From positions 139,528-203,527 of the forward strand of contig JAHFKN010000001.1 in the NCBI GenBank assembly GCA_023245355.1: DNA of 64,000 nucleotides, written 5' to 3'. This document shows positions 8,407-64,000 of this stretch, in pieces; positions within the stretch are counted from its first letter, which is position 1, and the number at the start of each line of letters is the position of its first letter. The stretch is from Candidatus Gottesmanbacteria bacterium (GTDB taxonomy: Bacteria; Patescibacteriota; Microgenomatia; UBA10105; UBA927). The notes beneath the pieces are model-generated. The model ran no database searches, was not told the DNA's origin, and saw only the letters and a list, made by a program, of their open reading frames with translations. A program made the translations under genes and the position numbers.

Positions 8407-8838
8407 TTACGCGCTTTTGCGTCCAGGGAGTTTTGTATATGCCTGTTCTAAAAGCGGCACGTTCGTTTTCGGATACCCGATCATACGTTCTGCGTGTTTC
8501 CATTCAACCCATTGTGCCTCGGAAATCCCCTCCTCAACCTGCACATGCGGCGTCTGCAGCGTCTTACTCCTGAACAGGAAATAGTGCACGGTTTTTTTAA
8601 TCGACTTTTTACGGAAATACCAATACATTGTGGGGGTAAGTTCCGCCACATACGTTAGGTTGTTTAATCCCACCTCTTCTTCGATTTCCCGGGTTGCAGT
8701 ATCCAAAAGATGCTCTCCCTTTTCAATTTTTCCCTTCGGAAACGTCCAGTTACCGCTCTGATCTTTCATGATCAGTACGCGCCATGAACCGGTTCCTTTA
8801 TATACGATGATGCCTCCTGCAGAAACCTCTGTATTCAT
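8407..8838 (-). CDS. NUDIX hydrolase
   Basis: Nudix box GKIEKGEHLLDTATREIEEEVGL (Gx5Ex7REUxEExGU). Confidence 0.85.
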   Translation of the reverse strand: MNTEVSAGGIIVYKGTGSWRVLIMKDQSGNWTFPKGKIEKGEHLLDTATREIEEEVGLNNLTYVAELTPTMYWYFRKKSIKKTVHYFLFRSKTLQTPHVQVEEGISEAQWVEWKHAERMIGYPKTNVPLLEQAYTKLPGRKSA

Positions 8839-9092
8839 TCTGTCGTAAGTAAATAAAGCTCGTCGCCCGGCTTTACCGGCTCGTTTACCTGTATGCCGCA
8901 GGACTCTCCGGGTTCGACTTTCAGCACTTTCGCATGTTCTATCTGCATAGATGTAATAATCTGATTAAATTCCTTGTCGTGGCCGGATATTTTTACCGTA
9001 TCACCGACTTTCAGCGACTGATTCATGACTTCTATGACGGCAACCTGCAGCTTGTCATAGTAGTGAGTGACTCTGCCTATCTGTATATCCAT
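8835..9092 (-). CDS. Small beta-barrel protein, EF-Tu domain-2-like
   Basis: 85 aa with VGDTVKISG..VKPGDELYLLT, resembling translation-factor domain 2 barrels. Stop/start overlap with the neighbouring genes. Confidence 0.35.
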   Translation of the reverse strand: MDIQIGRVTHYYDKLQVAVIEVMNQSLKVGDTVKISGHDKEFNQIITSMQIEHAKVLKVEPGESCGIQVNEPVKPGDELYLLTTE

Positions 9093-9099
9093 GTCATAA

Positions 9100-10278
9100 T
9101 CACCCCTTCCTATTGTAATACCTCTTGCCTTTCAGTTTGTCGGGCAACAAGCTTTCGCTTGTGTATGCCTGATATCCGCTGCCGTATCCTAGGTTTTTCA
9201 TAAGTGTGGTCGGGGCATTCCGGATGACGAGCGGAATCGGAAGATTGCCGTACTTTCTCACGTCATCAAGCGCTGCAAAGTACGCATCATAACTACTGCG
9301 GTCTTTTTTCGCAAGGCAAAGATATACAACGCCGTGCGCCAGGTTTTCCTGGCACTCGGGATACCCGATCTTATGACACGCATCGAACACCGCGTTTGCC
9401 ACCACCAGGGCTGTCGGCTGAATAACTCCGATATCCTCTGACGCAAATACGATCATGCGCCTCGCAATAAACAGCGGATCTTCGCCGGCCGCTACCATAC
9501 GGGCAAGATAATACAATGCCGCATCGGTGTCGCTTGCCCGCATGCTTTTGATAAACGCGCTTATCGTGTTGTAATGCTCATCGCCTACCCGGTCGTACTG
9601 GAGCATTTTGCGCTGTGCGGCTTCCTCTATGTCTTTAACGCTTATCTTTTTACCTTTAACGATTGACGCGGCAATTTCGAGTGTTGTAAGGAGTGCACGG
9701 GCGTCCCCGTTTGCCACCTCCAGTAAAAATTTCCTGCCCTCCCTGTCTATGGTCTTTTTCACATAGGTAAGGCCCGTATCTAGAATTTTTGTAAGTGCGC
9801 CTTCGTCCAAGGGCTTTAATACCAGCACGCGACAGCGGGATAACAGTGCACTGATGACTTCAAAAGACGGGTTCTCCGTGGTCGCGCCGATAAATATGAT
9901 GGTCCCTTTTTCGACGTGCGGCAGTAGGGAATCCTGTTGGGCTTTGTTAAATCTGTGGATTTCATCGATGAAAAAGACCGTACGTTTGCCTGATGTATCG
10001 AGGAGTTTTTGTGCGTCGGCAACTATGGCGCGAAGCTCTGAAAGCGTCGTATTGACGGCGGATCTGGAGACAAATTCAGCATCGCTAAGATGTGCCAGTA
10101 AATACGCCAACGTCGTCTTCCCACTTCCGGGCGGACCCCAAAACACCATAGACGGCAGAAAATCAGCACGCAGGAGTTTCCGAATGATGCCTGACGGCCC
10201 GACTAAATGATCCTGACCGATAACGTCATCAAGCGAACCGGGACGGAGAATTTCAGCTAAAGGACGGCTGTCTGCCAT
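9100..10278 (-). CDS. rarA: Replication-associated recombination protein A (AAA+ ATPase)
   Basis: Walker A GPPGSGKTTLA; DEIHRFNKAQQDSLLPHVE; C-terminal MgsA domain. Start at MADSRPLAEILRP avoids overlap with metK. Confidence 0.85.
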   Translation of the reverse strand: MADSRPLAEILRPGSLDDVIGQDHLVGPSGIIRKLLRADFLPSMVFWGPPGSGKTTLAYLLAHLSDAEFVSRSAVNTTLSELRAIVADAQKLLDTSGKRTVFFIDEIHRFNKAQQDSLLPHVEKGTIIFIGATTENPSFEVISALLSRCRVLVLKPLDEGALTKILDTGLTYVKKTIDREGRKFLLEVANGDARALLTTLEIAASIVKGKKISVKDIEEAAQRKMLQYDRVGDEHYNTISAFIKSMRASDTDAALYYLARMVAAGEDPLFIARRMIVFASEDIGVIQPTALVVANAVFDACHKIGYPECQENLAHGVVYLCLAKKDRSSYDAYFAALDDVRKYGNLPIPLVIRNAPTTLMKNLGYGSGYQAYTSESLLPDKLKGKRYYNRKG

Positions 10279-11409: not shown

Positions 11410-11582
11410 TTTCCGCCCTGATAAGCAAAAAATAACCCCGCCAAGCGGGGTAAACTTTTTCCCTACTTCAGGCAAATCATTCCTCGGTATTCTACCGGGA
11501 TTCGTTTTGGCACCGTATCCCAATTTGGCTCGGTTGCCGGGCGGATTATTGAGCGAAATCTCTCCCCGCCACTCTTGATTTA
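11410..11582 (-). promoter_or_regulatory. SAM-I (S-box) riboswitch with intrinsic terminator in metK 5' leader
   Basis: Minus-strand leader reads TAAATCAAGAGTGGCGGGGAGAGA...AATCCGCCCGGCAACC...GGTGCCAA...GAGGAATGATTTG. This matches the SAM-I core (UCAAGAG-GGCGGAGGGA...CCCGGCAACC...GGUGCCAA...AGAUGA) with P1 AAATCA/TGATTT. It is followed by hairpin CCCCGCTTGGCGGGG + UUAUUUUUUG immediately before the metK ATG. Confidence 0.7.
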
Positions 11583-11622
11583 TTAACTTTTTATCTACGT
11601 TACTCTTCCCGGACGTATGTTG

Positions 11623-18239: not shown

Positions 18240-18548
18240 ATGCATAAAATATTGTATGATACACATCATATGCAAAAAGATGTAAAGAAACGTGACGGGA
18301 GTACTGAAGCGTACGAAGAAGATAAAATTGCACGCGTTGTGACAACTGCGGGACTCGCACCCGATAAGGCGCATGGTCTTGCCGCGGCCGTATCCGCTTG
18401 GGTGAATAGTCTGCCCGATACCCACATCTCTTCATTGCAGATACGGGACAAGGTGCTGGAGTTGCTAACCGCAGCAGACACTAATGCAGCAGATCTGTAC
18501 CGCTGGTACGAAACCACCAAAGAACCGCAGAAAAAAGACGCAAGCTGA
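18240..18548 (+). CDS. ATP-cone domain protein
   Basis: DVKKRDGSTEAYEEDKIARVV matches the ATP-cone N-terminus (V.KRDG..E.F...KI). Confidence 0.6.
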   Translation: MHKILYDTHHMQKDVKKRDGSTEAYEEDKIARVVTTAGLAPDKAHGLAAAVSAWVNSLPDTHISSLQIRDKVLELLTAADTNAADLYRWYETTKEPQKKDAS

Positions 18549-18603
18549 GTACGCGTGTTGGAACTCAATCGGAACGTATATTCAGTCCTATAACGTTTTG
18601 CCT

Positions 18604-18844
18604 GTTGCACTGTGAGTGCAACTATTGTATGTTATCAGTGGTGCAAGTGCACTAGCTCTTTAAAACCGGAATATTTGTTTTTTGCCAAAAAACTTTCGCG
18701 CGGCGGAGGCTTACGCCTTCATAAAAACGGGGCATCATAGCCAACAATTATCGGGTATTGCTATATAGTTATTTATATTGCTATTACTTGCTATTTGGCT
18801 ATGTATATGTCTGATTCTTGTATGGATGGTGCAATCAAATGCAC
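18604..18844. promoter_or_regulatory. Operator-like palindromes with GTGCA/TGCAC half-sites: TTGCAC-tgtga-GTGCAA (18604-18622), GTGCA-ag-TGCAC (18641-18652), GTGCA-atcaaa-TGCAC (18829-18844)
   Basis: Three related inverted repeats upstream of the island 1 operon. The third lies about 50 bp upstream of the first gene's RBS. Confidence 0.45.
18757..18803 (+). repeat. Iteron-like direct repeats (A)TTGCTAT x3 + GGCTAT, phased 20/10/10 bp
   Basis: ATTGCTAT at 18757 and 18777, TTGCTAT at 18788, GGCTAT at 18798. Confidence 0.5.
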
Positions 18845-18895
18845 GGTCAATTTCAAACATTTTTTTGAGAGCTGCGAAAGGAGGTGAAATACCAT

Positions 18896-19180
18896 ATGGC
18901 AAAAAACAATACTGATGATTTAGTAGTTCCGGTTTCGGTCGCACATACATTGGTCGCAATATTCTTTGCGGATTCCAATAAAAAGGATCGGAATGTTGAT
19001 GAAATACATGCTGCGCTTTTTATAGCTGATAGGCTGAAGCATCGAGCAGAAGTATCTGAAGATGGATTCGTCCGAATTTCCGATGAGGAAGCGGTGACAA
19101 TTCTTCGTGAGCTTTACGCACGATTGTCTGACCCCTACAAACTAAAGAAAATAACGGATATGTTAACGACCCGAGGCTAA
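18896..19180 (+). CDS. Hypothetical protein (island 1, first gene)
   Basis: Strong RBS AAAGGAGGTGAAATACCAT-ATG; 94 aa. No known motif. Confidence 0.55.
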   Translation: MAKNNTDDLVVPVSVAHTLVAIFFADSNKKDRNVDEIHAALFIADRLKHRAEVSEDGFVRISDEEAVTILRELYARLSDPYKLKKITDMLTTRG

Positions 19181-19220
19181 CCCCTCCATCTTACAAAGCA
19201 ATTTACGTGTATAAACATCT

Positions 19221-19517
19221 ATGAAATTTGGAAAGGCCATAAATAAGTATCGCAAGGCTAAGAAGCTCTCTCAACGTGAGTTAGCCTTTATTGTGGGCGT
19301 AACACCCACATATTTATCTGCATTGGAAAACGACCGAAAAGAGCCAAGTATCAAGCTGATTCAAGAAATTTGTAAATCCTTGTCTATTCCTAAAGAAATA
19401 TTGTTTTGGGAGTCTCTCAACATGGTGGAGGGGATGACTCAAGATGATAAAAAAATTGTTTCTTCCGCAAAAGAAATCGTTAATAGTTATTTTCTTAAAT
19501 ATTCACATTTATCATGA
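19221..19517 (+). CDS. XRE-family HTH transcriptional regulator
   Basis: Cro/C1-type HTH LSQRELAFIVGVTPTYLSALENDRKEPSIKLIQEICKSLSIP. Confidence 0.8.
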   Translation: MKFGKAINKYRKAKKLSQRELAFIVGVTPTYLSALENDRKEPSIKLIQEICKSLSIPKEILFWESLNMVEGMTQDDKKIVSSAKEIVNSYFLKYSHLS

Positions 19518-20464
19518 TGGCTGCAAAAGCCTCTAAGATTATCACTTCCTCGTACAAAAGTTTTTGTGATTATCTGCGCATTTCCCCCGATGGTTTGGAA
19601 AAAATAATTCTCGGTCCAGATGCATTTATAGACCATAAATTTTCAAAGACCATAAAAGGAAAAAAACGTGATTTTTTGGTACCGAATACACAGCTTGCGG
19701 GTATCCTAAAGAAGATTGACCGTTTGGTTAAAAAACAAATTCCTCTTCCGTCTTACGTATACGGATGGGTTAAGGGAAAATCATCAAGAAAGAATGCGCT
19801 GTTACATGCGGGTGCTGAATATCTTTTTACCACTGATATAGAAAGTTTTTTTCCAAATATTTCACAACAAAAAATAAGCGACTCTCTTGTGAAGTCTGGT
19901 TTTAATCAAGTTGTCTCTACGAAGATTTCGTTGCTCACTACCTTTGGAGGAATATTGCCCCATGGATATCACTCCAGCCCAACCCTCGCCAATGTTGTCT
20001 TCATAGAAAATGATAGACGATTATATCGTTTGGCTAAGAAAAATCATTTTGTTTATAGTCGTTGTGGTGATGACATATCGTTGAGTGGTGAACGACCCGT
20101 TTATCCCCTTATGGGTACAATTAGCGCGATAGTGAGGCAGAGTGGTTTTATTTTATCTAAGAAAAAAACTATTAACTCGGGGCCTCACGACAAAAAAGTC
20201 ATCACAAAATTAGTTGTCAATTCTTCTCCAAGGCCAGAAAAAAAATACGTTTCAAATTTAAAGAATGATATTCGTTCATTATGGGAAGGTGGGGTTGGAT
20301 TAGCAAAACTTTCAAGGCAGAATGGCATGTCTCCAAAGAGAATGATTAAGAATATATGGGGTAGGCTACACTATGTAAAATCCTCAAACCCAAAATTGTA
20401 TCGGGCTATTCGCGGTCTTTTAGTTAAGGCTCGTACTAAGTTGGATATCGCGCCGCCGCGTTAA
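19514..20464 (+). CDS. Retron-type reverse transcriptase (non-canonical catalytic box CGDD)
   Basis: RT motifs: LVPNTQLAGILKKI; YGWVKGKSSRKNALLHAGAEYLFTTDIESFFPNI (retron 'GFVKGRS..NA..H......DLKDFFPSI'); LPHGYHSSPTLANVVF; YSRCGDDISLS (YxDD position); VITKLVVN (retron VTG region). 316 aa. ATGA overlap with the XRE stop. Confidence 0.7.
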   Translation: MMAAKASKIITSSYKSFCDYLRISPDGLEKIILGPDAFIDHKFSKTIKGKKRDFLVPNTQLAGILKKIDRLVKKQIPLPSYVYGWVKGKSSRKNALLHAGAEYLFTTDIESFFPNISQQKISDSLVKSGFNQVVSTKISLLTTFGGILPHGYHSSPTLANVVFIENDRRLYRLAKKNHFVYSRCGDDISLSGERPVYPLMGTISAIVRQSGFILSKKKTINSGPHDKKVITKLVVNSSPRPEKKYVSNLKNDIRSLWEGGVGLAKLSRQNGMSPKRMIKNIWGRLHYVKSSNPKLYRAIRGLLVKARTKLDIAPPR

Positions 20465-20530
20465 TGCGGGTCAAGGGCGCGTCTTCGCGCTTGCGGAGCC
20501 CTTGGCGCGCATTTGTGTTCCATAATTATT

Positions 20531-20578
20531 TTGGAGGAGAGGATGCTTTCCCAAGCAGCCTCCCTCCAATATTTTTTG
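20531..20578 (+). terminator. Putative intrinsic terminator after the RT gene
   Basis: TTGGAGGAGAGG...CCTCCCTCCAA stem followed by TATTTTTTG. Preceded by the GC hairpin GCGCG-TCTT-CGCGC. Confidence 0.4.
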
Positions 20579-21014
20579 TGTTTGGCGGCGCGATGATGAT
20601 AGCTATCCTATAATTCTATTTGCACTTTTTATTGTCAAGTGTAATAATTCCTTTTGCGAAACCAGTTACCAGTTGTTGAGAGCGCTTGCTACTGTTGCGT
20701 CCATGCATAAAGCATGGAAATTTCATCGGAGTTCGTCCTCAAAATCAAGCTTCTATTGTCGAAGCGGTTTAATCGTGAGATCTCAGATAAAGAAGCGATA
20801 GAGTTCTATCAAAGTCTCTATTACCTCGGTCGGGCTATCGCTCGTTTCCATGCTCCTCGGCATGAAAACACTAAAGCGAGTTAGCTCGTCCTCCCAATTA
20901 TCTTTGCTAGCAGGGGTGGCTCGCGACAGCGAGACCCTATGCTTGACTCCTTTTAGATCATTTCAAAAGGATAGGATAGACGGGTCTAAGGAATATCTTA
21001 AAGGCCGTTTTTTC

Positions 21015-21761
21015 GCCATGCGATCTCGACCATCGACGTTTTGTCGGCAAAATAAGTCGATGCTTCTGCACTACGATAATGGCAAAATTTCACATGCTAC
21101 CTTTTTGCGCATCCCGTGTCGTTCGTGGACGTGTCCCGATTGTGCTCCGACAAAAGCACATCGAGTTACCGCATTGCTTAAGGAGATCATTATCCTGAAT
21201 GATATGAAATATTTTTTGACTCTCACTCTCGATCCAGCAAATATTCCGCCCGAGTATTTGGTTCCAGAGAATCAGACGCATAAATATATAACCAAATTAT
21301 TTAACTCCCTTTTGTCCAATATTCGTTTGATCGAAAAAGATTTGCGTTATGTATGGGTTATAGAGTTTCAGAGAAATGGGAATGCGCATATGCATATTGT
21401 ATTAAATACTCGTCTCGATATCGTGCAGATTCGTAAAATTTGGACGCGTATCGGGGGTGGTGCGCAAAGTCGTGTTATGCAAATACGCGATCTTGTCAGT
21501 ATAGCTGCGTATCTTGCAAAATATGTTGGTAAAAGCTTGCTGGGATCTATTGGTAATCTGCATTATTTTGAGCGACGGTATAGCATTAGTCATTCGTGCA
21601 TGCGTCCTGTTATTTCTAAAGCAAAAACGTTTTATCCTGACCTTTCTCATGTGGGTCATTTGGCTATCTTGAGTCAGATGGGTTTACTTGGGGTATATAA
21701 TAAGCTTCTAATTGGCGACTTTATCGATGGCGAAACAATTTCTGTCGATAGAAAAATATGA
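21015..21761 (+). CDS. HUH-superfamily rolling-circle replication initiator (Rep)
   Basis: Motif I FLTLTLD; motif II HMHIVLN (HUHUUU); motif III YLAKYVGK (compare phiX174 gpA YVAKYVNK, two catalytic Tyr); Cys cluster CRSWTCPDC. The track ORF starts at 20850, but the likely start is the internal Met at about 21015. Confidence 0.65.
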   Translation, partial: AMRSRPSTFCRQNKSMLLHYDNGKISHATFLRIPCRSWTCPDCAPTKAHRVTALLKEIIILNDMKYFLTLTLDPANIPPEYLVPENQTHKYITKLFNSLLSNIRLIEKDLRYVWVIEFQRNGNAHMHIVLNTRLDIVQIRKIWTRIGGGAQSRVMQIRDLVSIAAYLAKYVGKSLLGSIGNLHYFERRYSISHSCMRPVISKAKTFYPDLSHVGHLAILSQMGLLGVYNKLLIGDFIDGETISVDRKI

Positions 21762-23242
21762 AATATTTTGTTTATAACCGTAAATCTACTGATGAATCTG
21801 GTAACCAGATTCTTTCCCTTGAGACCCAACGAGCCATAACCGATCATATAGCTCAACAATCTAGCTTGGAGGTTATAGAGACCATTCAGGAAGCCCGAAG
21901 TGCCAAGATTGCAGGCAATCGTCCGCTGTTTACCTCGATGCTTGTACGTGTTCGAGATGGGGAGGCAGAGGGGATAATTGTTGCGCACTTAGACCGACTA
22001 GCGCGTAACGAGAGGGAGTTAGCAGATATCGTCGAGCTTATGCAGAGTAAAGCGCTAAAAGAAGTTCGTACAAAGGATAAGATTTATGACTCGGTTGATG
22101 ATATTTACTACATGGGTATCGACCTTATTGGTGCAGCACAATTTTCTCGTAAACTTGCTGTTCGGGTAAAAGAGGGCATGCAAACAAAAGTTCGCCGTGG
22201 AGAATTCCCGACTCGCGCGCCGATAGGATATATAAACAGAGATGCAAAAATATATCCCGACCCAAACAACCTAAATTACATCAAATTAGCCTTTTCGCTG
22301 TATGCAGATGGCACGCATTCCCTTAAATCCATCACTTATATCCTGAATGACCGTGGTATGCGCACTCGGTACTCTAGGCAAGAGATACAAAAATCCGTTA
22401 TCCATGGAATACTTTCTAATCCTGTCTATTATGGAGCGATTCGTTCTGGTGGAACTCTCTACAAAGGAATTCACGAACCCATTATAAGCAAGGCGCTTTT
22501 TGATCAAGTACAAGAGGTTATGCACGGACATAATAATCCCAAGAAAGAAAAACATGACTATTTGTATCGCGGGTATCTCAAATGCGGCGTCTGTGGCTGT
22601 TCTCTCACCGCTACGCTTAAAAAGCAAAAACATATCTATTACTACTGCACCAATGCCAAAGGTGGTTGCACCCAGCACAATAAATATCTGACACAAGCAC
22701 AGGTTACTGAAAAAATCCCAGAAGTCTTTAAGCCCTTTTCCGCCTTAGAAGCAGATTTTGCACAGCTTGCTTATGAGACGTATGTGAACGATCTAAAAAA
22801 TGGAAGCGTGTCCGCACAAGATCAAGCAGAAGTGGCGCTAAAAGAGATAGATACTAAGTTGGGACGATTACTCGATCTCTACATTTCAGGGTCAGTCGAT
22901 GAGTCGTTGTATAACGAGAAGCGTAAAAAGTTGTCAGAGGAGCGCGTGAAATTAAGTCTCCAATTAACATCCCAAAAAACCGTAGACCCTACTTTAACTT
23001 TGGAACAAATGGAACGGCTGAAAAAGAGCGCTCTATCAATCTATACGATGTTTTGTGAGGGAGATGACTTAGTAAAGGCTGATCTATTGCGTTCAGCACT
23101 TTGGAACGCGCATTGGGTAAATGGAAACATCACGTCCCAGCAATACAAACCTCTTTGGCAAATACTTGAAAAAGGCCTCAAAAGTACCGATTTTAAAACT
23201 ATGTACCCCCTGCCGGATTCGAACCGGCGATTCACGGGCTGA
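21758..23242 (+). CDS. Large serine recombinase (integrase)
   Basis: N-terminal resolvase domain YNRKSTDESGNQILSLETQ (catalytic Ser region) and IIVAHLDRLARN; recombinase domain; zinc ribbon CGVCGC...YYYC. The C-terminal about 13 codons and the stop are encoded antisense within tRNA-Glu. Confidence 0.85.
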   Translation: MKYFVYNRKSTDESGNQILSLETQRAITDHIAQQSSLEVIETIQEARSAKIAGNRPLFTSMLVRVRDGEAEGIIVAHLDRLARNERELADIVELMQSKALKEVRTKDKIYDSVDDIYYMGIDLIGAAQFSRKLAVRVKEGMQTKVRRGEFPTRAPIGYINRDAKIYPDPNNLNYIKLAFSLYADGTHSLKSITYILNDRGMRTRYSRQEIQKSVIHGILSNPVYYGAIRSGGTLYKGIHEPIISKALFDQVQEVMHGHNNPKKEKHDYLYRGYLKCGVCGCSLTATLKKQKHIYYYCTNAKGGCTQHNKYLTQAQVTEKIPEVFKPFSALEADFAQLAYETYVNDLKNGSVSAQDQAEVALKEIDTKLGRLLDLYISGSVDESLYNEKRKKLSEERVKLSLQLTSQKTVDPTLTLEQMERLKKSALSIYTMFCEGDDLVKADLLRSALWNAHWVNGNITSQQYKPLWQILEKGLKSTDFKTMYPLPDSNRRFTG

Positions 23243-23277
23243 AAACCCGTTGTCCTAGGCCGCTAGACGAAGGGGGC
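23204..23277 (-). tRNA. tRNA-Glu (anticodon UUC)
   Basis: Reverse complement GCCCCCTTCGTCTAGCGGCCTAGGACAACGGGTTTTCAGCCCGTGAATCGCCGGTTCGAATCCGGCAGGGGGTA. Cloverleaf with anticodon loop UUUUCAG. Close to E. coli tRNA-Glu. Confidence 0.85.
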
Positions 23278-57467: not shown

Positions 57468-59120
57468 CTAAAAAGGGAATCCTACACATGGGAATCCCTT
57501 ATAGCGGGCGTAGTACACTGGTAGTATATATCCTTCCCAAGGATAGGAAGAGGGTTCGATTCCCTTCGCCCGCTCCATATCGGAATTATTTTTCGAAAGT
57601 GAGCCTTTATCCCCATTTATCGACCCTTTTTCGGGTCCGAGCCGACCTTTTTCATCATCGTACTCATTTTCAATCTTTTTTAAGTAGATAAATGCTTTTT
57701 TGCCGTCAATTCGCACTAATCTGTCTTTTAAAACCAGGTCCGAGCCAAGAATCCTTAGTACCATTCTTTTAACCTCAATATCGTCAACATTGAAGATTTT
57801 GGTGACATTTGCAGCAAAGTTTAGAGTCTCTTCCATAGACTTTGTCCAGGAGGCTAAGCCGTCGGTTTCTATACTTTTTTTGGTTTGTTTTTCTTCGGTG
57901 AGGAGTCGAGTCTTTTCCTTTTGATACTCTTCCTCAGTAATCATTCCGTCGATCTTCATACCATAAAGAGATTTTTTCTCAACAAGAATTGTATCGAGTC
58001 GTTTTGTCTGTTTACCCTTTTGGGTACGTTCAAAGGCAAACTCTCGTTCATTCCGGCGCCTGAGGTTATTTTTTACCCATTCAACAAAAGCGGGGCGTAT
58101 TTCTAAACTGGCAACAAACTCTCGCACCTGTTTCTCGACCTCAATGCCATTTAAATAAGGTTGGTGGCATGGTCCCTTCTTTTTTGTACATCGAGCATAA
58201 ATAAAGGTCTGTGATGTCCCACCTTTATAGTGCTTAGTCTTTTTCTCGGCTGTAATCGCTGCACCACATTCGCCACATTTTAAGATTTTCATAAAGTAGA
58301 AGTTGTTGTGCTGAGTGAAGACTCGTTTCCGGCCGTCAATAATATCCTGAACCCTTTGATATTCGTCAAGCGTAATCATAGGTTGGTGTTTACCCTCATA
58401 TCTCTCACCAGCATAGTCAAACATCCCAGTGTAAAAAACGTTCCTAAAGAACCTAAACGATTCAGTAATGCTGACTGGTCGTCCAACTCTTCTTCGACTT
58501 CTTAACCCTAGCAAGGTTATTTTTTCGAGCGAACTAATTACGGTCTCGTCTCCAGTTAACATCAGGTCCCACCACTTTCGGCACAGGTCAAATCGTTCAG
58601 TATCAACAAGAACTTCCTTTTGACCCTTTGGTTTGAAGTAATCATTGAGGTAACCAAGCGGAGCATTTCCCGGTCTCCAGCCATTTTGCACTTTGGTATT
58701 CATGCCTCTTTTAACATTGTCAGAAAGATCCTTACTAAACTTGGTAGCCATACCAAACTCAATAAAAAGGAATGTTGAATTATTGCGATCGTAGTCCATA
58801 GTAGGGGTGACGATCAACATACCGTTATAATCGACGTGATCGATCAGAGTGCCGCCCTCCTTGGCATTACGACAGAGCCGGTCGGCTTTCCAACAGAAAA
58901 TGTGTTTTACTTCGCCTTTGGAAACTCGCTCAACCATAGCTTTAAACTCTGGACGACGGTCCGGACGTTTGGCTGATTTACTCTCCTTATAGATGCCTAT
59001 GACCGCAAAACCCTTGTCTTTAGCAAGTTCCTTACAAGTACGCTCCTGATCATCGAGGGAGAGAATTTGGCGGTCCTTATCCTCAGAGGATTTCCTACAA
59101 TAAATAAAACAAGTATTCAT
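57468..59120 (-). CDS. Large serine recombinase (integrase), paralogous to the island 1 recombinase
   Basis: MNTCFIYCRKSSEDKDRQILSLDDQE, CWKADRLCRN, zinc ribbon CGECGA...YARC. The C-terminal about 36 codons as called are antisense of tRNA-Gly and the flanking sequence. Confidence 0.85.
   Translation of the reverse strand: MNTCFIYCRKSSEDKDRQILSLDDQERTCKELAKDKGFAVIGIYKESKSAKRPDRRPEFKAMVERVSKGEVKHIFCWKADRLCRNAKEGGTLIDHVDYNGMLIVTPTMDYDRNNSTFLFIEFGMATKFSKDLSDNVKRGMNTKVQNGWRPGNAPLGYLNDYFKPKGQKEVLVDTERFDLCRKWWDLMLTGDETVISSLEKITLLGLRSRRRVGRPVSITESFRFFRNVFYTGMFDYAGERYEGKHQPMITLDEYQRVQDIIDGRKRVFTQHNNFYFMKILKCGECGAAITAEKKTKHYKGGTSQTFIYARCTKKKGPCHQPYLNGIEVEKQVREFVASLEIRPAFVEWVKNNLRRRNEREFAFERTQKGKQTKRLDTILVEKKSLYGMKIDGMITEEEYQKEKTRLLTEEKQTKKSIETDGLASWTKSMEETLNFAANVTKIFNVDDIEVKRMVLRILGSDLVLKDRLVRIDGKKAFIYLKKIENEYDDEKGRLGPEKGSINGDKGSLSKNNSDMERAKGIEPSSYPWEGYILPVYYARYKGFPCVGFPF
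57504..57577 (+). tRNA. tRNA-Gly (anticodon CCC)
   Basis: GCGGGCGTAGTACACTGGTAGTATATATCCTTCCCAAGGATAGGAAGAGGGTTCGATTCCCTTCGCCCGCTCCA, with encoded CCA. Near-identical acceptor and T arms to E. coli tRNA-Gly(CCC). Confidence 0.85.
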
Positions 59121-59395
59121 AATTTAGTGGCCACATCTGGTAACCGGTTGGTGTTGATGTTAACTCTTCCACGAGTTGATTCAAGTCGTTTTTTAACTAG
59201 GGCGTCAAAAAGATTGAGAAGGGCCGTGGCTTGTTCGAAGGCTTGGCTGTCCGTTAGCTTAATTCCATACTCTTTTAAGGCTATTGCTTTAAATTCATCC
59301 AATTCATCTCTGGTAATGAGCGAGTTGGTGAGTATTAATTCGTCTGTGTCCTTAGCTGGTTCTTTAGCTGAAGTTTCTGTCATTGTATATAACAA
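59117..59395 (-). CDS. Hypothetical small protein upstream of the recombinase (possible recombination directionality factor or regulator)
   Basis: 92 aa; 4-nt overlap with the recombinase start. More protein-like than the antisense ORF 59067-59426. Confidence 0.4.
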   Translation of the reverse strand: MLYTMTETSAKEPAKDTDELILTNSLITRDELDEFKAIALKEYGIKLTDSQAFEQATALLNLFDALVKKRLESTRGRVNINTNRLPDVATKL

Positions 59396-59626
59396 ACGTA
59401 CAGAAACTGGTGGTTTATCTCAATAAACTTTGTGGATTTTTATGTCCACATAAGTAGACTAATGTAAGTTTCTCTCCAATTTAGCCTGGGAGGTTCGATT
59501 GACAGAAGGGGGTGAAATTTGGTATATTACTAGTACCGAATGATCTCGGTGGTGAAAGTACCTTTTAAGGGAGCGAATGTCGGCACAGAAATGTGATCCG
59601 TCTTGGCCACAGGGATCGAACTTTTT

Positions 59627-60256
59627 TCAGTAAGGTTTCCACAAGTCTTCTTCCCTCTTTTTAATCATCTTATAGAACGTGTCGTCACTTCGATTGTATT
59701 TCCGGTAAATTGCCCCACAGACCATATCCGCCAGTTGCAGCAAGTTGTTGCTTTTAGAGTCTTTGTGTCTAATCTGGCCCAAGAGCTTCTCGATGTCAGT
59801 GTTGAGTTTCTTCCTTAAGTACCCGTTAAACTCCCGTATAAAGTGTTTACTGGTCAAATCGACGAACAACGATGCGTGGTTAATCCGATTCTGAGCTCTC
59901 ATAAAGAGTTGGTCAGCCACCAACATATACAAACTGTCAGTTGGGTTGAGAGGTTCTCTTTTGAGAAGCTTCGTTTTATCGATAATAACTGAGCGGTAAT
60001 GAAAATCAAAGCGGGACAATTTTCGCAAAAAGACTTCCTTCTCGTGATTTGAGGTGCCGGTGCTGAATTTAAACTCTCTTCCCGGATGAAACTTGAGATC
60101 CTTTTTAAGTTGGTTAATGGCGTCGTTGGCTTTCTCGGCTGCGTCTAAGTCGTCAAATATAACGATGGTCAAGACAAAATAGGGACTGGAGACTCTCTTA
60201 AAGTTGAATCCGGTGTCACCTGACTCATCCATAAAGATGAGCATGGCTAGTGACAT
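59627..60256 (-). CDS. DUF3800-family protein
   Basis: N-terminal LIFMDESGDTGF and C-terminal LLQLADMVCGAIYRKY (DUF3800 hallmarks). 209 aa. 10-nt overlap with the ImmA-like gene. Confidence 0.75.
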   Translation of the reverse strand: MSLAMLIFMDESGDTGFNFKRVSSPYFVLTIVIFDDLDAAEKANDAINQLKKDLKFHPGREFKFSTGTSNHEKEVFLRKLSRFDFHYRSVIIDKTKLLKREPLNPTDSLYMLVADQLFMRAQNRINHASLFVDLTSKHFIREFNGYLRKKLNTDIEKLLGQIRHKDSKSNNLLQLADMVCGAIYRKYNRSDDTFYKMIKKREEDLWKPY

Positions 60257-60699
60257 AGATCCCCCTTTTGAGTTGTTCCAAACCCCAATTTCAAAAAATT
60301 TTTAGTAACGAGGAAATAGTCAGCTGCAGTTGCAAGAGGGAGCTGATTTGTTTTAGTCAGTAATTCGCGGGGCATTAACAACTCTGTGGCAAAACACTCC
60401 GCTTCATACTCCTGTTTAAAATTAACAAATTGATCACAACTTTCGAAATAGAGTTGATTCCCTGTATGGAGAAAGTGATGACCTAAGGCGTGGGCAATGA
60501 GCTCGCGCCTTTTTCGTTTATCGGTGTGTGAGCGAATGCCAATACTATCACCTAAATAGACTTCCTTTACGCGGCCACCAAATGACCACTCGTCCAAGGT
60601 TAGCCCTTCGGCGGTAACAATTTTATGTAAATCTATTGGGGCAGTAGATAGATCGTACTTGCGTAAAATCTGTCTAGCCCTTCTTTGGGCCTTTATCAT
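60247..60699 (-). CDS. ImmA/IrrE-family (COG2856) metallopeptidase-like protein, HExxH Glu replaced (HALGH)
   Basis: ELIAHALGHHFLH...EAECFATELLMP matches the ImmA pattern (F.IAHELGH..LH...E.EA..FA..LLMP), with Ala at the catalytic Glu position. Confidence 0.65.
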   Translation of the reverse strand: MIKAQRRARQILRKYDLSTAPIDLHKIVTAEGLTLDEWSFGGRVKEVYLGDSIGIRSHTDKRKRRELIAHALGHHFLHTGNQLYFESCDQFVNFKQEYEAECFATELLMPRELLTKTNQLPLATAADYFLVTKNFLKLGFGTTQKGDLCH

Positions 60700-61141
60700 A
60701 TTTTTGTCGGCGTCGGGTTTTTACATACCCGATATAGTCCATGACCGACTCCTTCTCGCTATTGGTCATGTCCTGAACTTCTTTAAGCATTAGCGTAAAT
60801 GAGGCATCCTGCTTGAGCTTGTCGCTGGTCTTATCCAAATACCCAGCTTTATTTAAAAGAGTCTCGTTGGGAATTTGATAAACAAATGCCAATGCCTTCA
60901 GCTTAAGCGGTGAAGGATGTTGATATTTTCCTAACTCAAGGTTGGATAGATATCCGCGCGAAACAGCAGACTGGGGATCCAATTTACCACTTTTAATTGC
61001 TGCCTTGGTTGACTCCACTACCGAACGGAGAGTGAAATCTTTTGCTTCTCGAAGTTTGCACAAATACTCACCAACCGTAGCAAAATCGTCGGGTCCTTTT
61101 AATGTGGTTTCTTTGTTTGTTTTTGTCTTCATATAGGTCAA
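60674..61141 (-). CDS. XRE-family HTH regulator (ImmR-like)
   Basis: HTH VGEYLCKLREAKDFTLRSVVEST...RGYLSNLELGK. Overlaps the ImmA-like gene start. Confidence 0.7.
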   Translation of the reverse strand: MTYMKTKTNKETTLKGPDDFATVGEYLCKLREAKDFTLRSVVESTKAAIKSGKLDPQSAVSRGYLSNLELGKYQHPSPLKLKALAFVYQIPNETLLNKAGYLDKTSDKLKQDASFTLMLKEVQDMTNSEKESVMDYIGYVKTRRRQKYDKGPKKG

Positions 61142-61286
61142 TAAACTCGCTGATTTTTATTGTAACAGAAAAAGTAAGTAATTACTTATTATTCATATTA
61201 TAATGATAGTTGTCTACATAAATGGACACAAACAATCATAAAGTTTATTGAAGTAAATTGCAAGAATTTGTACCTTTGTATATAAC

Positions 61287-61556
61287 ATGACAAAAACGAA
61301 ATCTAAAAAAACAATATTCATCAATAAGGACAAGAGAGTTAACAATGAGCTGTTCGATGAAGTCAGACTCACCAAAGGACTATCTCGATTTCAATTGGCT
61401 GTAGAGGTCGAGCTTTCTCCCCAAACAGTTAGACGAGTTTTAGTTTCCGACGAAGACCCACGACCATCAACGGTTAAAAAGGTGGGTGACTTTTTAGGAA
61501 TACCGGCAAAAGAATGGTACTTAAAAAGAGAAAGCAAGGAGGTGAACCATGGATAA
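61287..61556 (+). CDS. Cro-like small HTH protein (divergent from XRE)
   Basis: LSRFQLAVEVELSPQTVRRVL...VKKVGDFLGIP. 89 aa. Confidence 0.5.
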   Translation: MTKTKSKKTIFINKDKRVNNELFDEVRLTKGLSRFQLAVEVELSPQTVRRVLVSDEDPRPSTVKKVGDFLGIPAKEWYLKRESKEVNHG

Positions 61557-61704
61557 AGCAATGAAATCTAGGATCCGTGCAAGGAAGCGAAGATATTACC
61601 TCTACCGCCTAAAGATATTTATGTGGAAATGGTTGGCGATATTACTTGGCATCTGGATTATTTACCAGCTTCTAGGGACATTTTTCCACCGATGCTGGTT
61701 GTGA
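61549..61704 (+). CDS. Small hydrophobic protein (51 aa)
   Basis: Strong RBS AAGGAGGTGAACC-ATG overlapping the Cro-like stop; MDKAMKSRIRARKRRYYLYRLKIFMWKWLAILLGIWIIYQLL. Below the ORF-track threshold. Confidence 0.35.
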   Translation: MDKAMKSRIRARKRRYYLYRLKIFMWKWLAILLGIWIIYQLLGTFFHRCWL

Positions 61705-61762
61705 ATATAACAACAATTAACACAGAAAATGATTATGTCCAGCAAAAAGTTAAATCAAAACA

Positions 61763-62485
61763 ATGATGGCAAGAATCAACTACACCACAATCAATCACGA
61801 GGCTCGAGCCAGGTTGGGTTTAACCATCAATGAATACTGTGTGTACGATTTAATCCACAACTTGGCGAGTAACCCCAAAAACATTCAGATGGGCTGGTGC
61901 TATGCCAAGAAAGAAACGATTGCTGATTACTTAGATCTTGGTCGAGCCACTGTCTTTCGAGCCATTAAAAAAGGCTTGAAAATAAATCTCCTTGAAAAGC
62001 ATCCCGAACAACCGGCGTTCTTAAAAGCCACCAGCGATTGGTATGACTCGGTGATGATTAAAACAGAGTCTCAAAATGAGACGGCTAGTATCAATATGAG
62101 ACGAGAGGCGTCTCAAAGTGAGATAAAACCGCATCTCAAAATGAGACTGAACAAAGATATAGAGAACAATGAAAATGACAACAGAGAAATTGTCAATTTA
62201 AAAAAATCTTCAAAAGGTATTGTTTCGATTGGTCAAGTGATTGCAAACCACCAACACAGCTTACTCGGAGTAGAAAACGAATGGGAAGTGGAGGCCATAC
62301 GACTCTGGCATGAGTTAAGTTTGTCAGGAGATCCGAGCGAGTCGTTCGTAAAACACATCCATCGATATATCAAAAAGAATTTACAGGTAAAGCTTTCCGT
62401 TGCTCTTTCATATTGCAAAGATGCAACCAAAGTTCGTGATAGAGAAAAGTTATTTTATTGGCGCTGTGCTAACGAGCCAGCGTAA
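61763..62485 (+). CDS. Hypothetical protein, possible winged-helix replication/organiser protein
   Basis: N-terminal ARLGLTINEYCVYDLIH..KETIADYLDLGRATVFRAIKKG (wHTH-like); acidic low-complexity middle. 240 aa. Confidence 0.4.
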   Translation: MMARINYTTINHEARARLGLTINEYCVYDLIHNLASNPKNIQMGWCYAKKETIADYLDLGRATVFRAIKKGLKINLLEKHPEQPAFLKATSDWYDSVMIKTESQNETASINMRREASQSEIKPHLKMRLNKDIENNENDNREIVNLKKSSKGIVSIGQVIANHQHSLLGVENEWEVEAIRLWHELSLSGDPSESFVKHIHRYIKKNLQVKLSVALSYCKDATKVRDREKLFYWRCANEPA

Positions 62486-62499
62486 AGGAGGTGATTATT

Positions 62500-62652
62500 A
62501 TGGTAACAACCAAAACCAAATACCATTTTGAAGGCAGTAAAAAAGATACCAAGGGTAATCCTGTGTATATCGTTATTGAGTTAAAGACTGGAAAACTTCT
62601 GGAGTGGGACCAGAAAACTTACGATGCTCATAAAGAAGAAATTGAATATTAA
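62500..62652 (+). CDS. Small hypothetical protein (50 aa)
   Basis: Strong RBS AAGGAGGTGATTATT-ATG; MVTTKTKYHFEGSKKDTKGNPVYIVIELKTGKLLEWDQKTYDAHKEEIEY. Below the track threshold. Confidence 0.35.
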   Translation: MVTTKTKYHFEGSKKDTKGNPVYIVIELKTGKLLEWDQKTYDAHKEEIEY

Positions 62653-62657
62653 AACCT

Positions 62658-62915
62658 ATGACTAGAACACGCAATCAATTACTAGAAAAAATTTATAACT
62701 CGGTCCATGAGGAAAAACTCCGAATGGAAATTGCCATTGAAACGCTGGCTGATGTTGCTGATGACAAGATTATTGAAACTGTCACACATCGGTCCCCTTT
62801 GGGAGCCAGAGAGGAAAACTTAACCAAGAAAGATGTGGTTGCTAAATACACCCAAGATATCGAGAAGCGCAACAAGGTGTTGGTAATTATTGAAAGATTA
62901 TTAAAAGAAAAATGA
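62658..62915 (+). CDS. Hypothetical protein
   Basis: 85-aa ORF; its stop overlaps the next gene's start (ATGA). Confidence 0.4.
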   Translation: MTRTRNQLLEKIYNSVHEEKLRMEIAIETLADVADDKIIETVTHRSPLGAREENLTKKDVVAKYTQDIEKRNKVLVIIERLLKEK

Positions 62916-64000
62916 AAACAATAAAGTATCCAACCATCGCCATAAACCTACTACACTTCGCCGAATACAATCCGCGTAAAGTTACCCGGAGCGTCATCGA
63001 GCAGCTGAAGAATTCATTAACTGAGTTTGGTTGTCCGGTCCCGATTGTTATCAATTCATATAAAGGTCGAGAGAATGTGGTTGTGGGTGGAGAAAAGCGG
63101 ATCCGGGCAGCAACCGAACTCGGATGGACAGAAATTCCTTACAGTCTCGTTTGTATTCCACTACAAAAGGAAAAAGCGCTTAACTTGGCATTAAACAAGA
63201 TTGAGGACCAGTGGGATGATGAAAAACTAGCCCAAGTTATAACTGAACTGACTAAATCAGATTTTGATTTATCTCTGACCGGATTTAACGAAGTGGAAAT
63301 AAGTAATCTCCTCGATACAACAATGCTCTTACCGGAGGATGAGCAGGAGAAGGAATGGGATACCCAAAAAGAGCTTGATGAGATTACCAAGCCAATCTCC
63401 AAATACGGCGAAGTCTACCAGCTGGGTCCACATCGGCTGATGTGTGGAGATGCTACCAAACCTGAAGATATTCAGAAGCTGATGGATGGCAAAGTAGCTG
63501 ACATGATCTTCTCCGATCCACCCTACAACGTGGCTCACAAAAGCATGGAAAAAGCGGGAAAGTTTCACACCAAGGAAGGAATCATCCTAAACGATGATAT
63601 GAGTGATGAGGCCTTTATCAAGTTCACTCAGGGCTTTTTCACCAGCTTTAACAGTGTCCTAAAACCGGGTGGAGCCATTTATGTTTGCACTGGCTATTCT
63701 TCCTACCCATTATTTTATTACCAGATGTTAAATAACAATTTTGTTTTCAGCTCTACCATCGTCTGGGTCAAGCCCTCCTTTGCTATTGGATGGGGTGACT
63801 ACAAAAAACAGTACGAACAAGTGATGAAAGGGAAACGTGGTCCTGGTAAATCAAAAGCAGAACCAATCCTATATGGCTGGAGGCAAGGAGAGAATCATAA
63901 GTTTGAAGGAGACGCTAATGAAAGCGATGTTTGGGAAATGCCAAGGAAAGCTGTCACTGAGATGGTCCATCCAACCGAGAAGCCGGAGTGGCTGATTATG
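62912..64000 (+). CDS. ParB-like nuclease domain fused to N6/N4 DNA methyltransferase (partial, runs off window)
   Basis: Manual translation: ParB/Srx N-domain NPRKV...VINSYKGRENVVVGGEKRIRAATELGW; methyltransferase motif IV SDPPYN and HPTEKPEWL (N6_N4_Mtase). No stop before position 64000. Confidence 0.75.
   Translation, partial: MKTIKYPTIAINLLHFAEYNPRKVTRSVIEQLKNSLTEFGCPVPIVINSYKGRENVVVGGEKRIRAATELGWTEIPYSLVCIPLQKEKALNLALNKIEDQWDDEKLAQVITELTKSDFDLSLTGFNEVEISNLLDTTMLLPEDEQEKEWDTQKELDEITKPISKYGEVYQLGPHRLMCGDATKPEDIQKLMDGKVADMIFSDPPYNVAHKSMEKAGKFHTKEGIILNDDMSDEAFIKFTQGFFTSFNSVLKPGGAIYVCTGYSSYPLFYYQMLNNNFVFSSTIVWVKPSFAIGWGDYKKQYEQVMKGKRGPGKSKAEPILYGWRQGENHKFEGDANESDVWEMPRKAVTEMVHPTEKPEWLIM

Follow-up and report, generated by a model that had tools for sequence, protein, structure and literature searches.

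A 4.66-kb integrative element at a tRNA-Glu gene of Candidatus Gottesmanbacteria, probably a Type VI-like retron cassette carried as cargo on a shared orf56-Rep-recombinase backbone

The 64,000-nucleotide stretch of DNA analysed here (the window; contig JAHFKN010000001.1 of assembly GCA_023245355.1, positions 139,528 to 203,527 of the forward strand) comes from a Candidatus Gottesmanbacteria bacterium and contains, at window positions 18549-23206, a 4.66-kb integrative element that lies at the end of a tRNA-Glu gene. Along the element, genes for a small protein (SP), a helix-turn-helix (HTH) protein and a retron-type reverse transcriptase (RT) are followed in the same orientation by orf56, a conserved small open reading frame (ORF), and by the genes of two enzymes, Rep, an HUH-type rolling-circle initiator, and the LSR, a large serine recombinase. 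The reading that we consider probable is that of a two-module integrative element, in which the retron cassette is cargo on an orf56-Rep-LSR backbone shared with other elements. The features of the locus are as follows, dso and sso standing for double-strand and single-strand origin.

Positions 18548-18578, plus strand: conserved left end of the element (attP' arm), recognised by its match to L055, a second copy of the element described below.
Positions 18549-18552: putative attL crossover core GTAC, directly after the stop codon (18546-48) of a chromosomal ATP-cone gene.
Positions 18579-18895, plus strand: 317-nt non-coding leader of the retron cassette, a candidate msr-msd region according to fold statistics and pairings.
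Positions 18884-19180, plus strand: ORF of SP; likely start ATG 18896, giving 94 aa, with AGGAGG at 18880-85 and a spacing of 10 nt.
Positions 19221-19517, plus strand: HTH protein of the Cro/C1 type, 98 aa (HTH_3).
Positions 19514-20464, plus strand: retron-type RT, 316 aa (RVT_1 and retron RT models).
Positions 20445-20625: GC-rich structured start of the backbone, candidate origin (dso/sso) or terminator/insulator.
Positions 20714-20884, plus strand: orf56, 56 aa, overlapping the start of Rep.
Positions 20850-21761, plus strand: ORF of Rep, the HUH rolling-circle initiator; 299 aa from ATG 20862, where the homologue alignments begin.
Positions 21758-23242, plus strand: LSR, 494 aa (Resolvase, Recombinase and Zn_ribbon_recom).
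Positions 23203-23206: putative attR crossover core GTAC, placed by the limits of homology to L054 (a related contig without the element) and L055.
Positions 23203-23277, minus strand: tRNA-Glu(UUC), found by ARAGORN and by Rfam (56.8 bits).

An earlier note on this DNA had named five of these genes and the tRNA, and ORF prediction, ARAGORN and Rfam confirm all of them at the positions that it gave; its count of five missed orf56 at 20714-20884 as the sixth conserved ORF. Its identifications of RT, Rep and recombinase all hold in profile searches. The six ORFs are intact and the catalytic residues are kept (HUH and YxxxY in Rep, YNRKST in the LSR, DD in the RT), and GC content is 38-43% in the block as against about 50% in both flanks. 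Translational coupling, which the same note had supposed for the whole series, applies to HTH/RT and Rep/LSR, each joined by an ATGA overlap, and to orf56/Rep, which also overlap, but not to SP and HTH, which are separated by 40 nt, nor to the RT and the next gene, orf56, which lies 250 nt further on. This 250-nt gap after the RT is the boundary between two modules, and as far as sequence comparison can tell these are separable: a backbone at 20449-23206 and a cargo retron cassette at 18579-20448.

Two contigs from elsewhere bear on whether the block is mobile. The first, L054, is a 146-kb contig of the Joint Genome Institute (JGI) from a close relative, with flanks 93-96% identical to the window on both sides, in which the 4.65-kb block is absent; there, the stop codon of the ATP-cone gene and the 3' end of tRNA-Glu enclose 1.27 kb with rsgA and a 58-aa ORF, and its homology with the window stops at 18548 and picks up again at 23202. 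The second, L055, holds another copy of the element, with a backbone 91% identical at the nucleotide level to 20449-23209 (Rep 96.5% and LSR 92% identical as proteins) and with the same left end (30 of 31 nt matching between window 18548-18578 and L055 56-86). Both the left chromosomal flank and the cargo of L055 differ from those of the window, and the RT is absent; in the retron's place are two unrelated genes, for proteins of 268 aa and of 272 aa, the second with TPR matches that are weak and under threshold. The L055 element stands in a tandem array, being followed by a second LSR element and then by a tRNA-Glu 3' end. Presence/absence polymorphism and identical ends in different genomic contexts are thus both seen, and because L054 is without the block and L055 has the same ends and backbone in another context, the block is best regarded as a mobile insertion. 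The homology between window and L055 runs from 18548, breaks at 18578/18579 and 20448/20449 and ends at 23209, and because of the two internal breaks the retron is taken as a discrete cassette. These comparisons support the earlier description of a compact integrative element at tRNA-Glu, and with L054 lacking the block, it is not a conserved part of the core chromosome.

The left end reads AGTAC[G/A]CGTGTTGGAACTCAATCGGAACGTA and holds AATCGGAAC (18567-75), an imperfect inverted partner of GTACCGATT (23184-92); tentatively, AATCGGAAC and GTACCGATT may be recombination half-sites. GTAC is the only sequence common to both junctions, and at attR it occupies, on the tRNA strand, acceptor-stem positions 71-72, the discriminator (73) and one trailer nucleotide. 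We infer that GTAC is the crossover core and place it at the terminal nucleotides of the tRNA gene (23203-06). The predicted attP junction of the excised circle would then be ...GATTTTAAAACTAT-GTAC-GCGTGTTGGAACTC..., and the predicted attB junction ...GCAAGCTGA-GTAC-CCCCTGCCGG.... The tRNA-Glu is intact and identical in sequence to the tRNA-Glu of the element-free L054; the element does not end inside the tRNA, as had been supposed, since only the LSR frame enters it and the core lies at its last nucleotides. The classic attachment signature, a direct repeat of the tRNA 3' half at the left end, is absent from the window, where GTAC alone is shared, and a candidate for a decayed copy of that half, 18541-18570, was rejected (15/38 matches, no T-arm). 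Contig ends close to the junctions (L004 spans 18511-23229; L006 ends at 23200, with a 30-nt overlap) lie off the limits given by L054 and L055 and were not used as attachment sites; they indicate branching of the assembly graph near both ends of the element.

Several observations weigh against this account of ends and mobility. The locus is identical in all four metagenome contigs of this organism, all of which carry the element; no circular contig corresponding to an excised circle or attP was found, and no empty site was seen within the population. The attP junction and left arm had no matches in JGI metagenomes, a weak test in that the organism's own samples are absent from the collection. 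Additionally, L054 is not a clean empty site, as rsgA stands there and a deletion or replacement must be assumed too, and the GTAC core is drawn from two comparisons. The missing circle and empty site, the missing rsgA and the non-canonical RT motifs (CGDD, no VTG) could also be read as traces of a decaying, immobilised remnant, that is, a dead retron on an element fixed in the chromosome. We regard such decay as improbable, considering that six ORFs with their catalytic residues are intact, that a 91% identical copy with precisely conserved ends occurs elsewhere, and that GC content is still 8-10 points under that of the host.

If the block is a mobile insertion, either its arrival went with the loss or relocation of rsgA, or else the locus is a general hotspot. 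The rsgA gene encodes a ribosome-biogenesis GTPase, and no rsgA is found in any part of the 64-kb window; in L054 (reverse complement) it lies together with the 58-aa ORF at 8519-9786, at the place of insertion. The ATP-cone gene beside attL (18240-18548) is about 75% identical to that of L054, as against 93-96% for the surrounding flanks; its relatives begin at the internal Met11, and the endings differ (...PQQKS vs ...PQKKDAS). This suggests local recombination or faster divergence beside the insertion site. Two further contigs, L051 and L052, reached through ATP-cone variants (L054 was reached through the right-flank protein P0071), were considered as empty sites and rejected: they share the left flank at 85% identity and have unrelated genes on the right side. 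In this third relative, still other genes occupy the locus.

The LSR matches PF00239, PF07508 and PF13408 (resolvase catalytic domain, recombinase and zinc ribbon), all over cutoffs, as well as the integrase family phrog_95 (2.1e-72), and its N-terminal YNRKST motif is expected to hold the nucleophile. Its frame overlaps tRNA-Glu by 40 nt, and its last 13 codons are antisense tRNA-Glu, beyond the attR core. The protein ends in ...MYPLPDSNRRFTG here and in ...MYPI in the 92% identical LSR of L055; because these tails differ, the C-terminal tail is taken to depend on the sequence beyond the core, and it would differ again in the excised circle. In four related loci (L008, L013, L019 and L022) the LSR frame crosses the entire antisense tRNA before its stop, and the C-terminal extension, which is target-dependent, ranges from 9 nt to a full tRNA.

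A scan for Rep homologues, made with one genome per species, found 40 Rep loci. Among the 18 closest, Rep is followed by an LSR in every case, an orf56 homologue stands directly upstream of Rep in 15/18, and the LSR frame ends in or passes through an antisense tRNA in 14/18, the tRNAs being those for Glu, Gln, Ser, Arg, Asp and Val. The hosts belong mostly to the candidate phyla radiation (Levy-, Roizman-, Woese-, Gottesman- and Amesbacteria, WWE3 and Saccharibacteria), and the elements of the family are cassettes of 3.7-5.3 kb adjoining tRNAs in chromosomes. The backbone is accordingly a mobile module that recurs in a family of small elements from mainly candidate-phyla-radiation genomes, and the LSR frame of these elements as a rule terminates in an antisense tRNA; a crossover at the tRNA 3' terminus is placed for the present element only. 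Our literature searches found no published description of an orf56-Rep-LSR family, which is weak evidence. More distant Reps (L027-L044, 29-35% identity) occur in Acidobacteriaceae genomes with no adjacent LSR, and for this reason the Rep family is wider than the family of integrative elements.

The slot upstream of orf56 varies from element to element. In nine loci it is occupied by an uncharacterised protein of about 250 aa. L009 (6657-8276) has there an S24 LexA/CI-like repressor and the candidate defence pair PDC-M50, made up of a ThsB-like TIR protein (5.9e-66) and its partner (3.4e-48); L017 has a Gp49/HTH toxin-antitoxin pair and a DUF6941 protein. Three elements of 3.7 kb (L020 8638-12319, L022 3074-6755 and L025 8639-12319) are 89-90% identical and consist of the ~250-aa protein, orf56, Rep and LSR; they are inserted next to tRNA-Asp (L020), tRNA-Ser (L022) and non-tRNA sequence (L025). 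Their conserved right arm ends in ...ACATGGCGG, which corresponds to the CCA end of a tRNA; as a point against extending the model of the ends to this lineage, no matching core was found at the left junction. Tandem arrays with two different LSR elements at one tRNA are seen in L055 (4642-9625) and L016 (15956-18608), and the junction between the elements keeps a GTACCCC core. The window itself has a second low-GC island of the same geometry at 57468-64000, which runs off the window end and has no Rep: its LSR (57468-59120, minus strand; Resolvase, Recombinase and Zn ribbon) runs antisense through tRNA-Gly (57504-57577) and is followed by a 92-aa ORF, a DUF3800 gene (59627-60256), an ImmA-like Peptidase_M78 gene (60247-60699) and an HTH gene (60674-61141).

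This variation bears directly on the functional link between RT and Rep that the earlier note had raised, here read as a unit in which the RT would assist replication of the element or make, from the element's transcripts, multicopy single-stranded DNA used by Rep. Such a unit would be attractive in that both enzymes make or act on single-stranded DNA (ssDNA) and are co-directional on a 4.66-kb element; moreover, the RT's final codons share positions 20449-20464 with the first bases of the conserved, structured start of the backbone. No RT or SP homologue occurs in any of the 18 related backbone loci, however, and the 91% identical backbone of L055 carries unrelated cargo. No Rep gene is described in the operons of the nearest RT homologues that were examined or in published Type VI retron operons, and the cassette, which comes with a leader and partner proteins of its own, is set apart from the backbone by the 250-nt gap. 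Comparative data have thus already largely refuted the unit, and we give it very little credence. Because 0/18 backbones have an RT and the L055 backbone carries other cargo, the pairing of RT and Rep is one of passenger and vehicle: defence cassettes ride in the cargo slot, without cooperation between the two enzymes.

Rep matches REP_ORF2-G2P (PF23343, 1e-14) and a PHROG rolling-circle initiator family (2.9e-18), and has motif I, the HUH motif II, a tyrosine motif III with two tyrosines (YxxxY) and an HUH fold. The earlier label 'phiX-like' is fair for motif III; in structure comparison, the closest solved folds are other HUH nucleases. A RepSA match in Pfam is far under threshold (18.9 vs 34 bits), and Rep has no sequence relative in PDB and no match in PADLOC. 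Since both the Pfam family PF23343 and the PHROG family are phage-associated, and motif III resembles the two-tyrosine phiX pattern, an ssDNA prophage like those of microviruses or inoviruses, or else a satellite of such a phage, might be suspected. This is most unlikely: the Pfam and PHROG searches of the 4.66 kb yield no capsid, morphogenesis or packaging gene, no relative of Rep was found among 2.9 million IMG/VR viral contigs, and its relatives are instead the 3.7-5.3-kb chromosomal cassettes at tRNAs described above.

The remaining parts of the backbone can be assigned tentatively. The product of orf56, which has no family match in Pfam, PHROG or PADLOC profile searches, may be an accessory protein of Rep or a recombination directionality factor, and it is similar in size to the small directionality factors of TP901-1 and SPbeta. 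The segment at 20445-20625, which folds strongly as ssDNA (-48 kcal/mol, z = -6.98), is conserved in L055, where the backbone homology begins at 20449, and extends into the end of the RT gene; a role as the Rep origin (dso/sso) or as a terminator/insulator is possible. A comparable structure is present in some relatives only and is not family-wide. It counts against an assignment as origin that the Rep nick site was not identified and that no nick-site motif common to the relatives was found upstream of orf56.

The cargo module begins with a strongly structured leader. The fold of 18549-18915 has an energy of -108.8 kcal/mol (z = -4.27; 0/100 shuffles as stable; a further z-score of -3.84). 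A perfect 13-bp pairing (18675-87 with 18897-909) spans the SP start codon, and a 16-nt repeat, 81% complementary (18849-64 with 19213-28), flanks the SP coding sequence and reaches the HTH start. [quoted passage not shown] The leader is a candidate for the msr-msd part of such a hybrid RNA; Rfam gives no match to a retron or other RNA family within the block.

SP has no match in Pfam, PHROGs, PADLOC or NCBIfam, and no homologue among 5.8e9 clustered proteins or 1.84e9 cluster representatives; a single-sequence structure model predicts, with low confidence (predicted local distance difference test score, pLDDT, 63), a mostly helical protein. Known SPs themselves share almost no sequence (1.9% identity between Sen3 and Vpa2); by its position, the SP of the present element is a candidate retron effector or toxin. 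The HTH protein matches HTH_3 (2.3e-14) and PADLOC's HTH_VI (5.3e-21, profile positions 2-87 of 92), and is a candidate antitoxin or RT partner.

That the RT belongs among retron RTs is indicated by several profile collections. It matches RVT_1 (1.2e-7); in PADLOC the best 25 of 51 matches are all retron RT models, headed by RT_III-A (3.5e-49) and RT_VI (5.9e-49); in NCBIfam the retron St85 model is best, with Drt2 and Drt3a at only 1e-3 to 1e-5. Against PDB sequences, 15/15 matches are RTs, of which 12/15 are named retron RTs and 0/15 another named class, Ec86 being the best (4e-23). The retron NAxxH motif, as defined by Mestre et al. 2020 (PMC7736814) in region X between RT2 and RT3, is present as NALLH at residues 94-98, just before TDIESFFP. 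The canonical combination of VTG and YADD is not found, the most conserved G of VTG being absent, and given CGDD and the missing glycine the activity of the RT could be altered or lost. An attempt to assign the RT to a clade through its homologues failed, as a search gave five matches in all, self included, the others all at most 36% identical.

Type VI retrons (RT clade 3) are characterised by a Cro/C1 HTH protein of 91-110 aa beside the RT, to which a small auxiliary protein of helical structure is often added (PMC7736814), and their gene order is SP-HTH-RT, SP being a toxic effector that HTH neutralises (10.1101/2025.10.22.683967; 10.64898/2026.04.27.721009). With Retron-Vpa2, Retron-Sen3 and Retron-Eco12 the present cassette shares this order, the HTH/RT overlap, an HTH protein whose 98 aa fall within the 91-110 range, a structured leader predicted to hide the SP start, an inverted repeat around the SP coding sequence, and NAxxH. 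It differs from them in an RT at most 36% identical to anything found, scoring equally well as III-A and having CGDD and no VTG glycine, and in a candidate SP of 94 aa, as against 55-79 aa, that is without homologues. Furthermore, Type VI retrons occur in Proteobacteria and Bacteroidetes, whereas the relatives of the carrier backbone here are mostly from the candidate phyla radiation.

A number of these and related findings speak against a straightforward Type VI assignment. RT_VI scores 164.8 bits as against 165.5 and 165.1 for two RT_III-A models; the RT has CGDD in place of YADD/YVDD and V-I-T opposite the V-H-G of its homologues, the catalytic DD being kept; and its nearest homologues stand in another operon type (166aa-245aa-55aa-RT). 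An unrelated HTH protein also matches HTH_VI (3.5e-14, in the HTH domain only), SP is an orphan whose label as toxin comes from its position, and the leader has no homologues with which covariation could be assessed. Because SP is an orphan, the Type VI and III-A models score the RT alike and a generic HTH protein scores with HTH_VI, we call the cassette Type VI-like by architecture, and membership of the Type VI RT clade is not established. The impression that the XRE/RT pair is defence-like is supported. Control of the RT by the XRE protein was also proposed earlier; the HTH protein of published Type VI retrons acts on the small toxic protein, as its antitoxin or partner, and is not simply a regulator of the RT (10.1101/2025.10.22.683967; 10.64898/2026.04.27.721009).

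The same data allow the SP-HTH(-RT) genes to be seen mainly as an addiction or stabilisation module of the element, with an anti-phage role coming second. In Retron-Sen3, HTH-SP is reported to be a toxin-antitoxin pair independent of RT and non-coding RNA; the L017 element has its classical Gp49/HTH toxin-antitoxin pair in the same slot, and the present element is retained in all four contigs of the organism. The characterised Type VI retrons nevertheless defend against phages, and L009 carries its TIR-type candidate defence pair; both roles can coexist. Stabilisation as the main role appears to us unlikely, and we keep to a retron cassette borne as defence-like cargo.

On the two-module reading, the element might work as follows. 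The LSR would act on two sites (core GTAC), the terminal nucleotides of the tRNA gene and an attP overlapping the 3' end of the LSR gene itself, and recombination at GTAC would leave the tRNA intact; orf56 may set the direction of recombination. After excision, Rep would nick an origin, possibly within 20445-20625, and copy the circle by rolling-circle replication (RCR), or it may act alternatively as a relaxase. In the cargo, SP would be a toxic effector restrained by HTH, by an RNA structure masking the start codon, or by both, by analogy with Retron-Vpa2 and Retron-Sen3, and part of the leader would serve the RT as template for ssDNA; interference by a phage could then free the toxin and lead to abortive infection of the Vpa2/Sen3 kind. 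What the sequence data show is the modular structure, the mobility of the backbone, an association of insertion with tRNAs throughout the family (at the 3' terminus of the tRNA in the present element) and the intactness of the catalytic motifs of Rep and LSR.

Among known mobile elements, the integrative and conjugative elements of actinomycetes (AICEs) such as pSAM2 are the closest analogues in logic, with integrative and mobilizable elements (IMEs) close as well. AICEs likewise insert at a tRNA 3' end and leave the tRNA functional, have a phage-like Rep of the rolling-circle type that replicates them once excised, and can occur in tandem at a single tRNA (PMC2440964), but theirs is a tyrosine integrase with Xis, on 9-24 kb with FtsK-like transfer genes, as against an LSR, 4.66 kb, no transfer genes and a sub-threshold RepSA match here. 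The Firmicutes IMEs with a serine integrase and/or an RCR-type relaxase are similarly small and combine an integration module, an RCR-type initiator and passengers. Serine-recombinase IMEs have very short direct repeats on either side and are reported to insert inside genes, which they disrupt, tRNA and 3'-end targets being typical of tyrosine integrases (PMC5704250). Unlike in the Firmicutes IMEs, the LSR here targets tRNA 3' termini and Rep belongs to PF23343, not to Rep_trans or Rep_2. To our knowledge, no conjugative helper has been identified in the hosts of these elements. In a published account (PMC11551731), pipolins, P4-like satellites and phage-inducible chromosomal islands (PICIs) show the same combination of a conserved maintenance and integration backbone with an exchangeable slot for defence or toxin-antitoxin genes; their backbone enzymes are unrelated to those described here, the present element is far smaller, and it gives no sign of dependence on a helper phage. 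Defence cassettes on bimodular elements are thus already well known from pipolins.

Elsewhere in the window, a SAM-I riboswitch at 11471-11584 on the minus strand (48.1 bits, over the gathering score) lies upstream of an S-adenosylmethionine synthetase gene.

It is possible, at a confidence just short of even, that these loci represent an undescribed family of minimal (3.7-5.3 kb) rolling-circle elements, with LSRs that target many tRNA 3' ends and, their frames being completed across attR, have a tail changing with integration state, which act as plug-in carriers of defence genes, together with a new, divergent lineage of Type VI-like retrons (CGDD, V-I-T and an orphan effector). The idea of RT and Rep as one machine gives way to a testable modular picture, in which the backbone family and the retron's divergence are of most interest. 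LSRs that use tRNA 3' ends as attB, apparently over several tRNA identities, are unusual and could be of interest as integration tools. A retron with an orphan effector, distant from every characterised one, widens the range of sequences over which translational derepression and post-translational toxin-antitoxin control, the two Type VI mechanisms published, can be set side by side. The mobile elements of candidate-phyla-radiation bacteria are poorly known, and an element of 3.7-5.3 kb with a defined cargo slot offers a simple system for the movement of defence genes among them.

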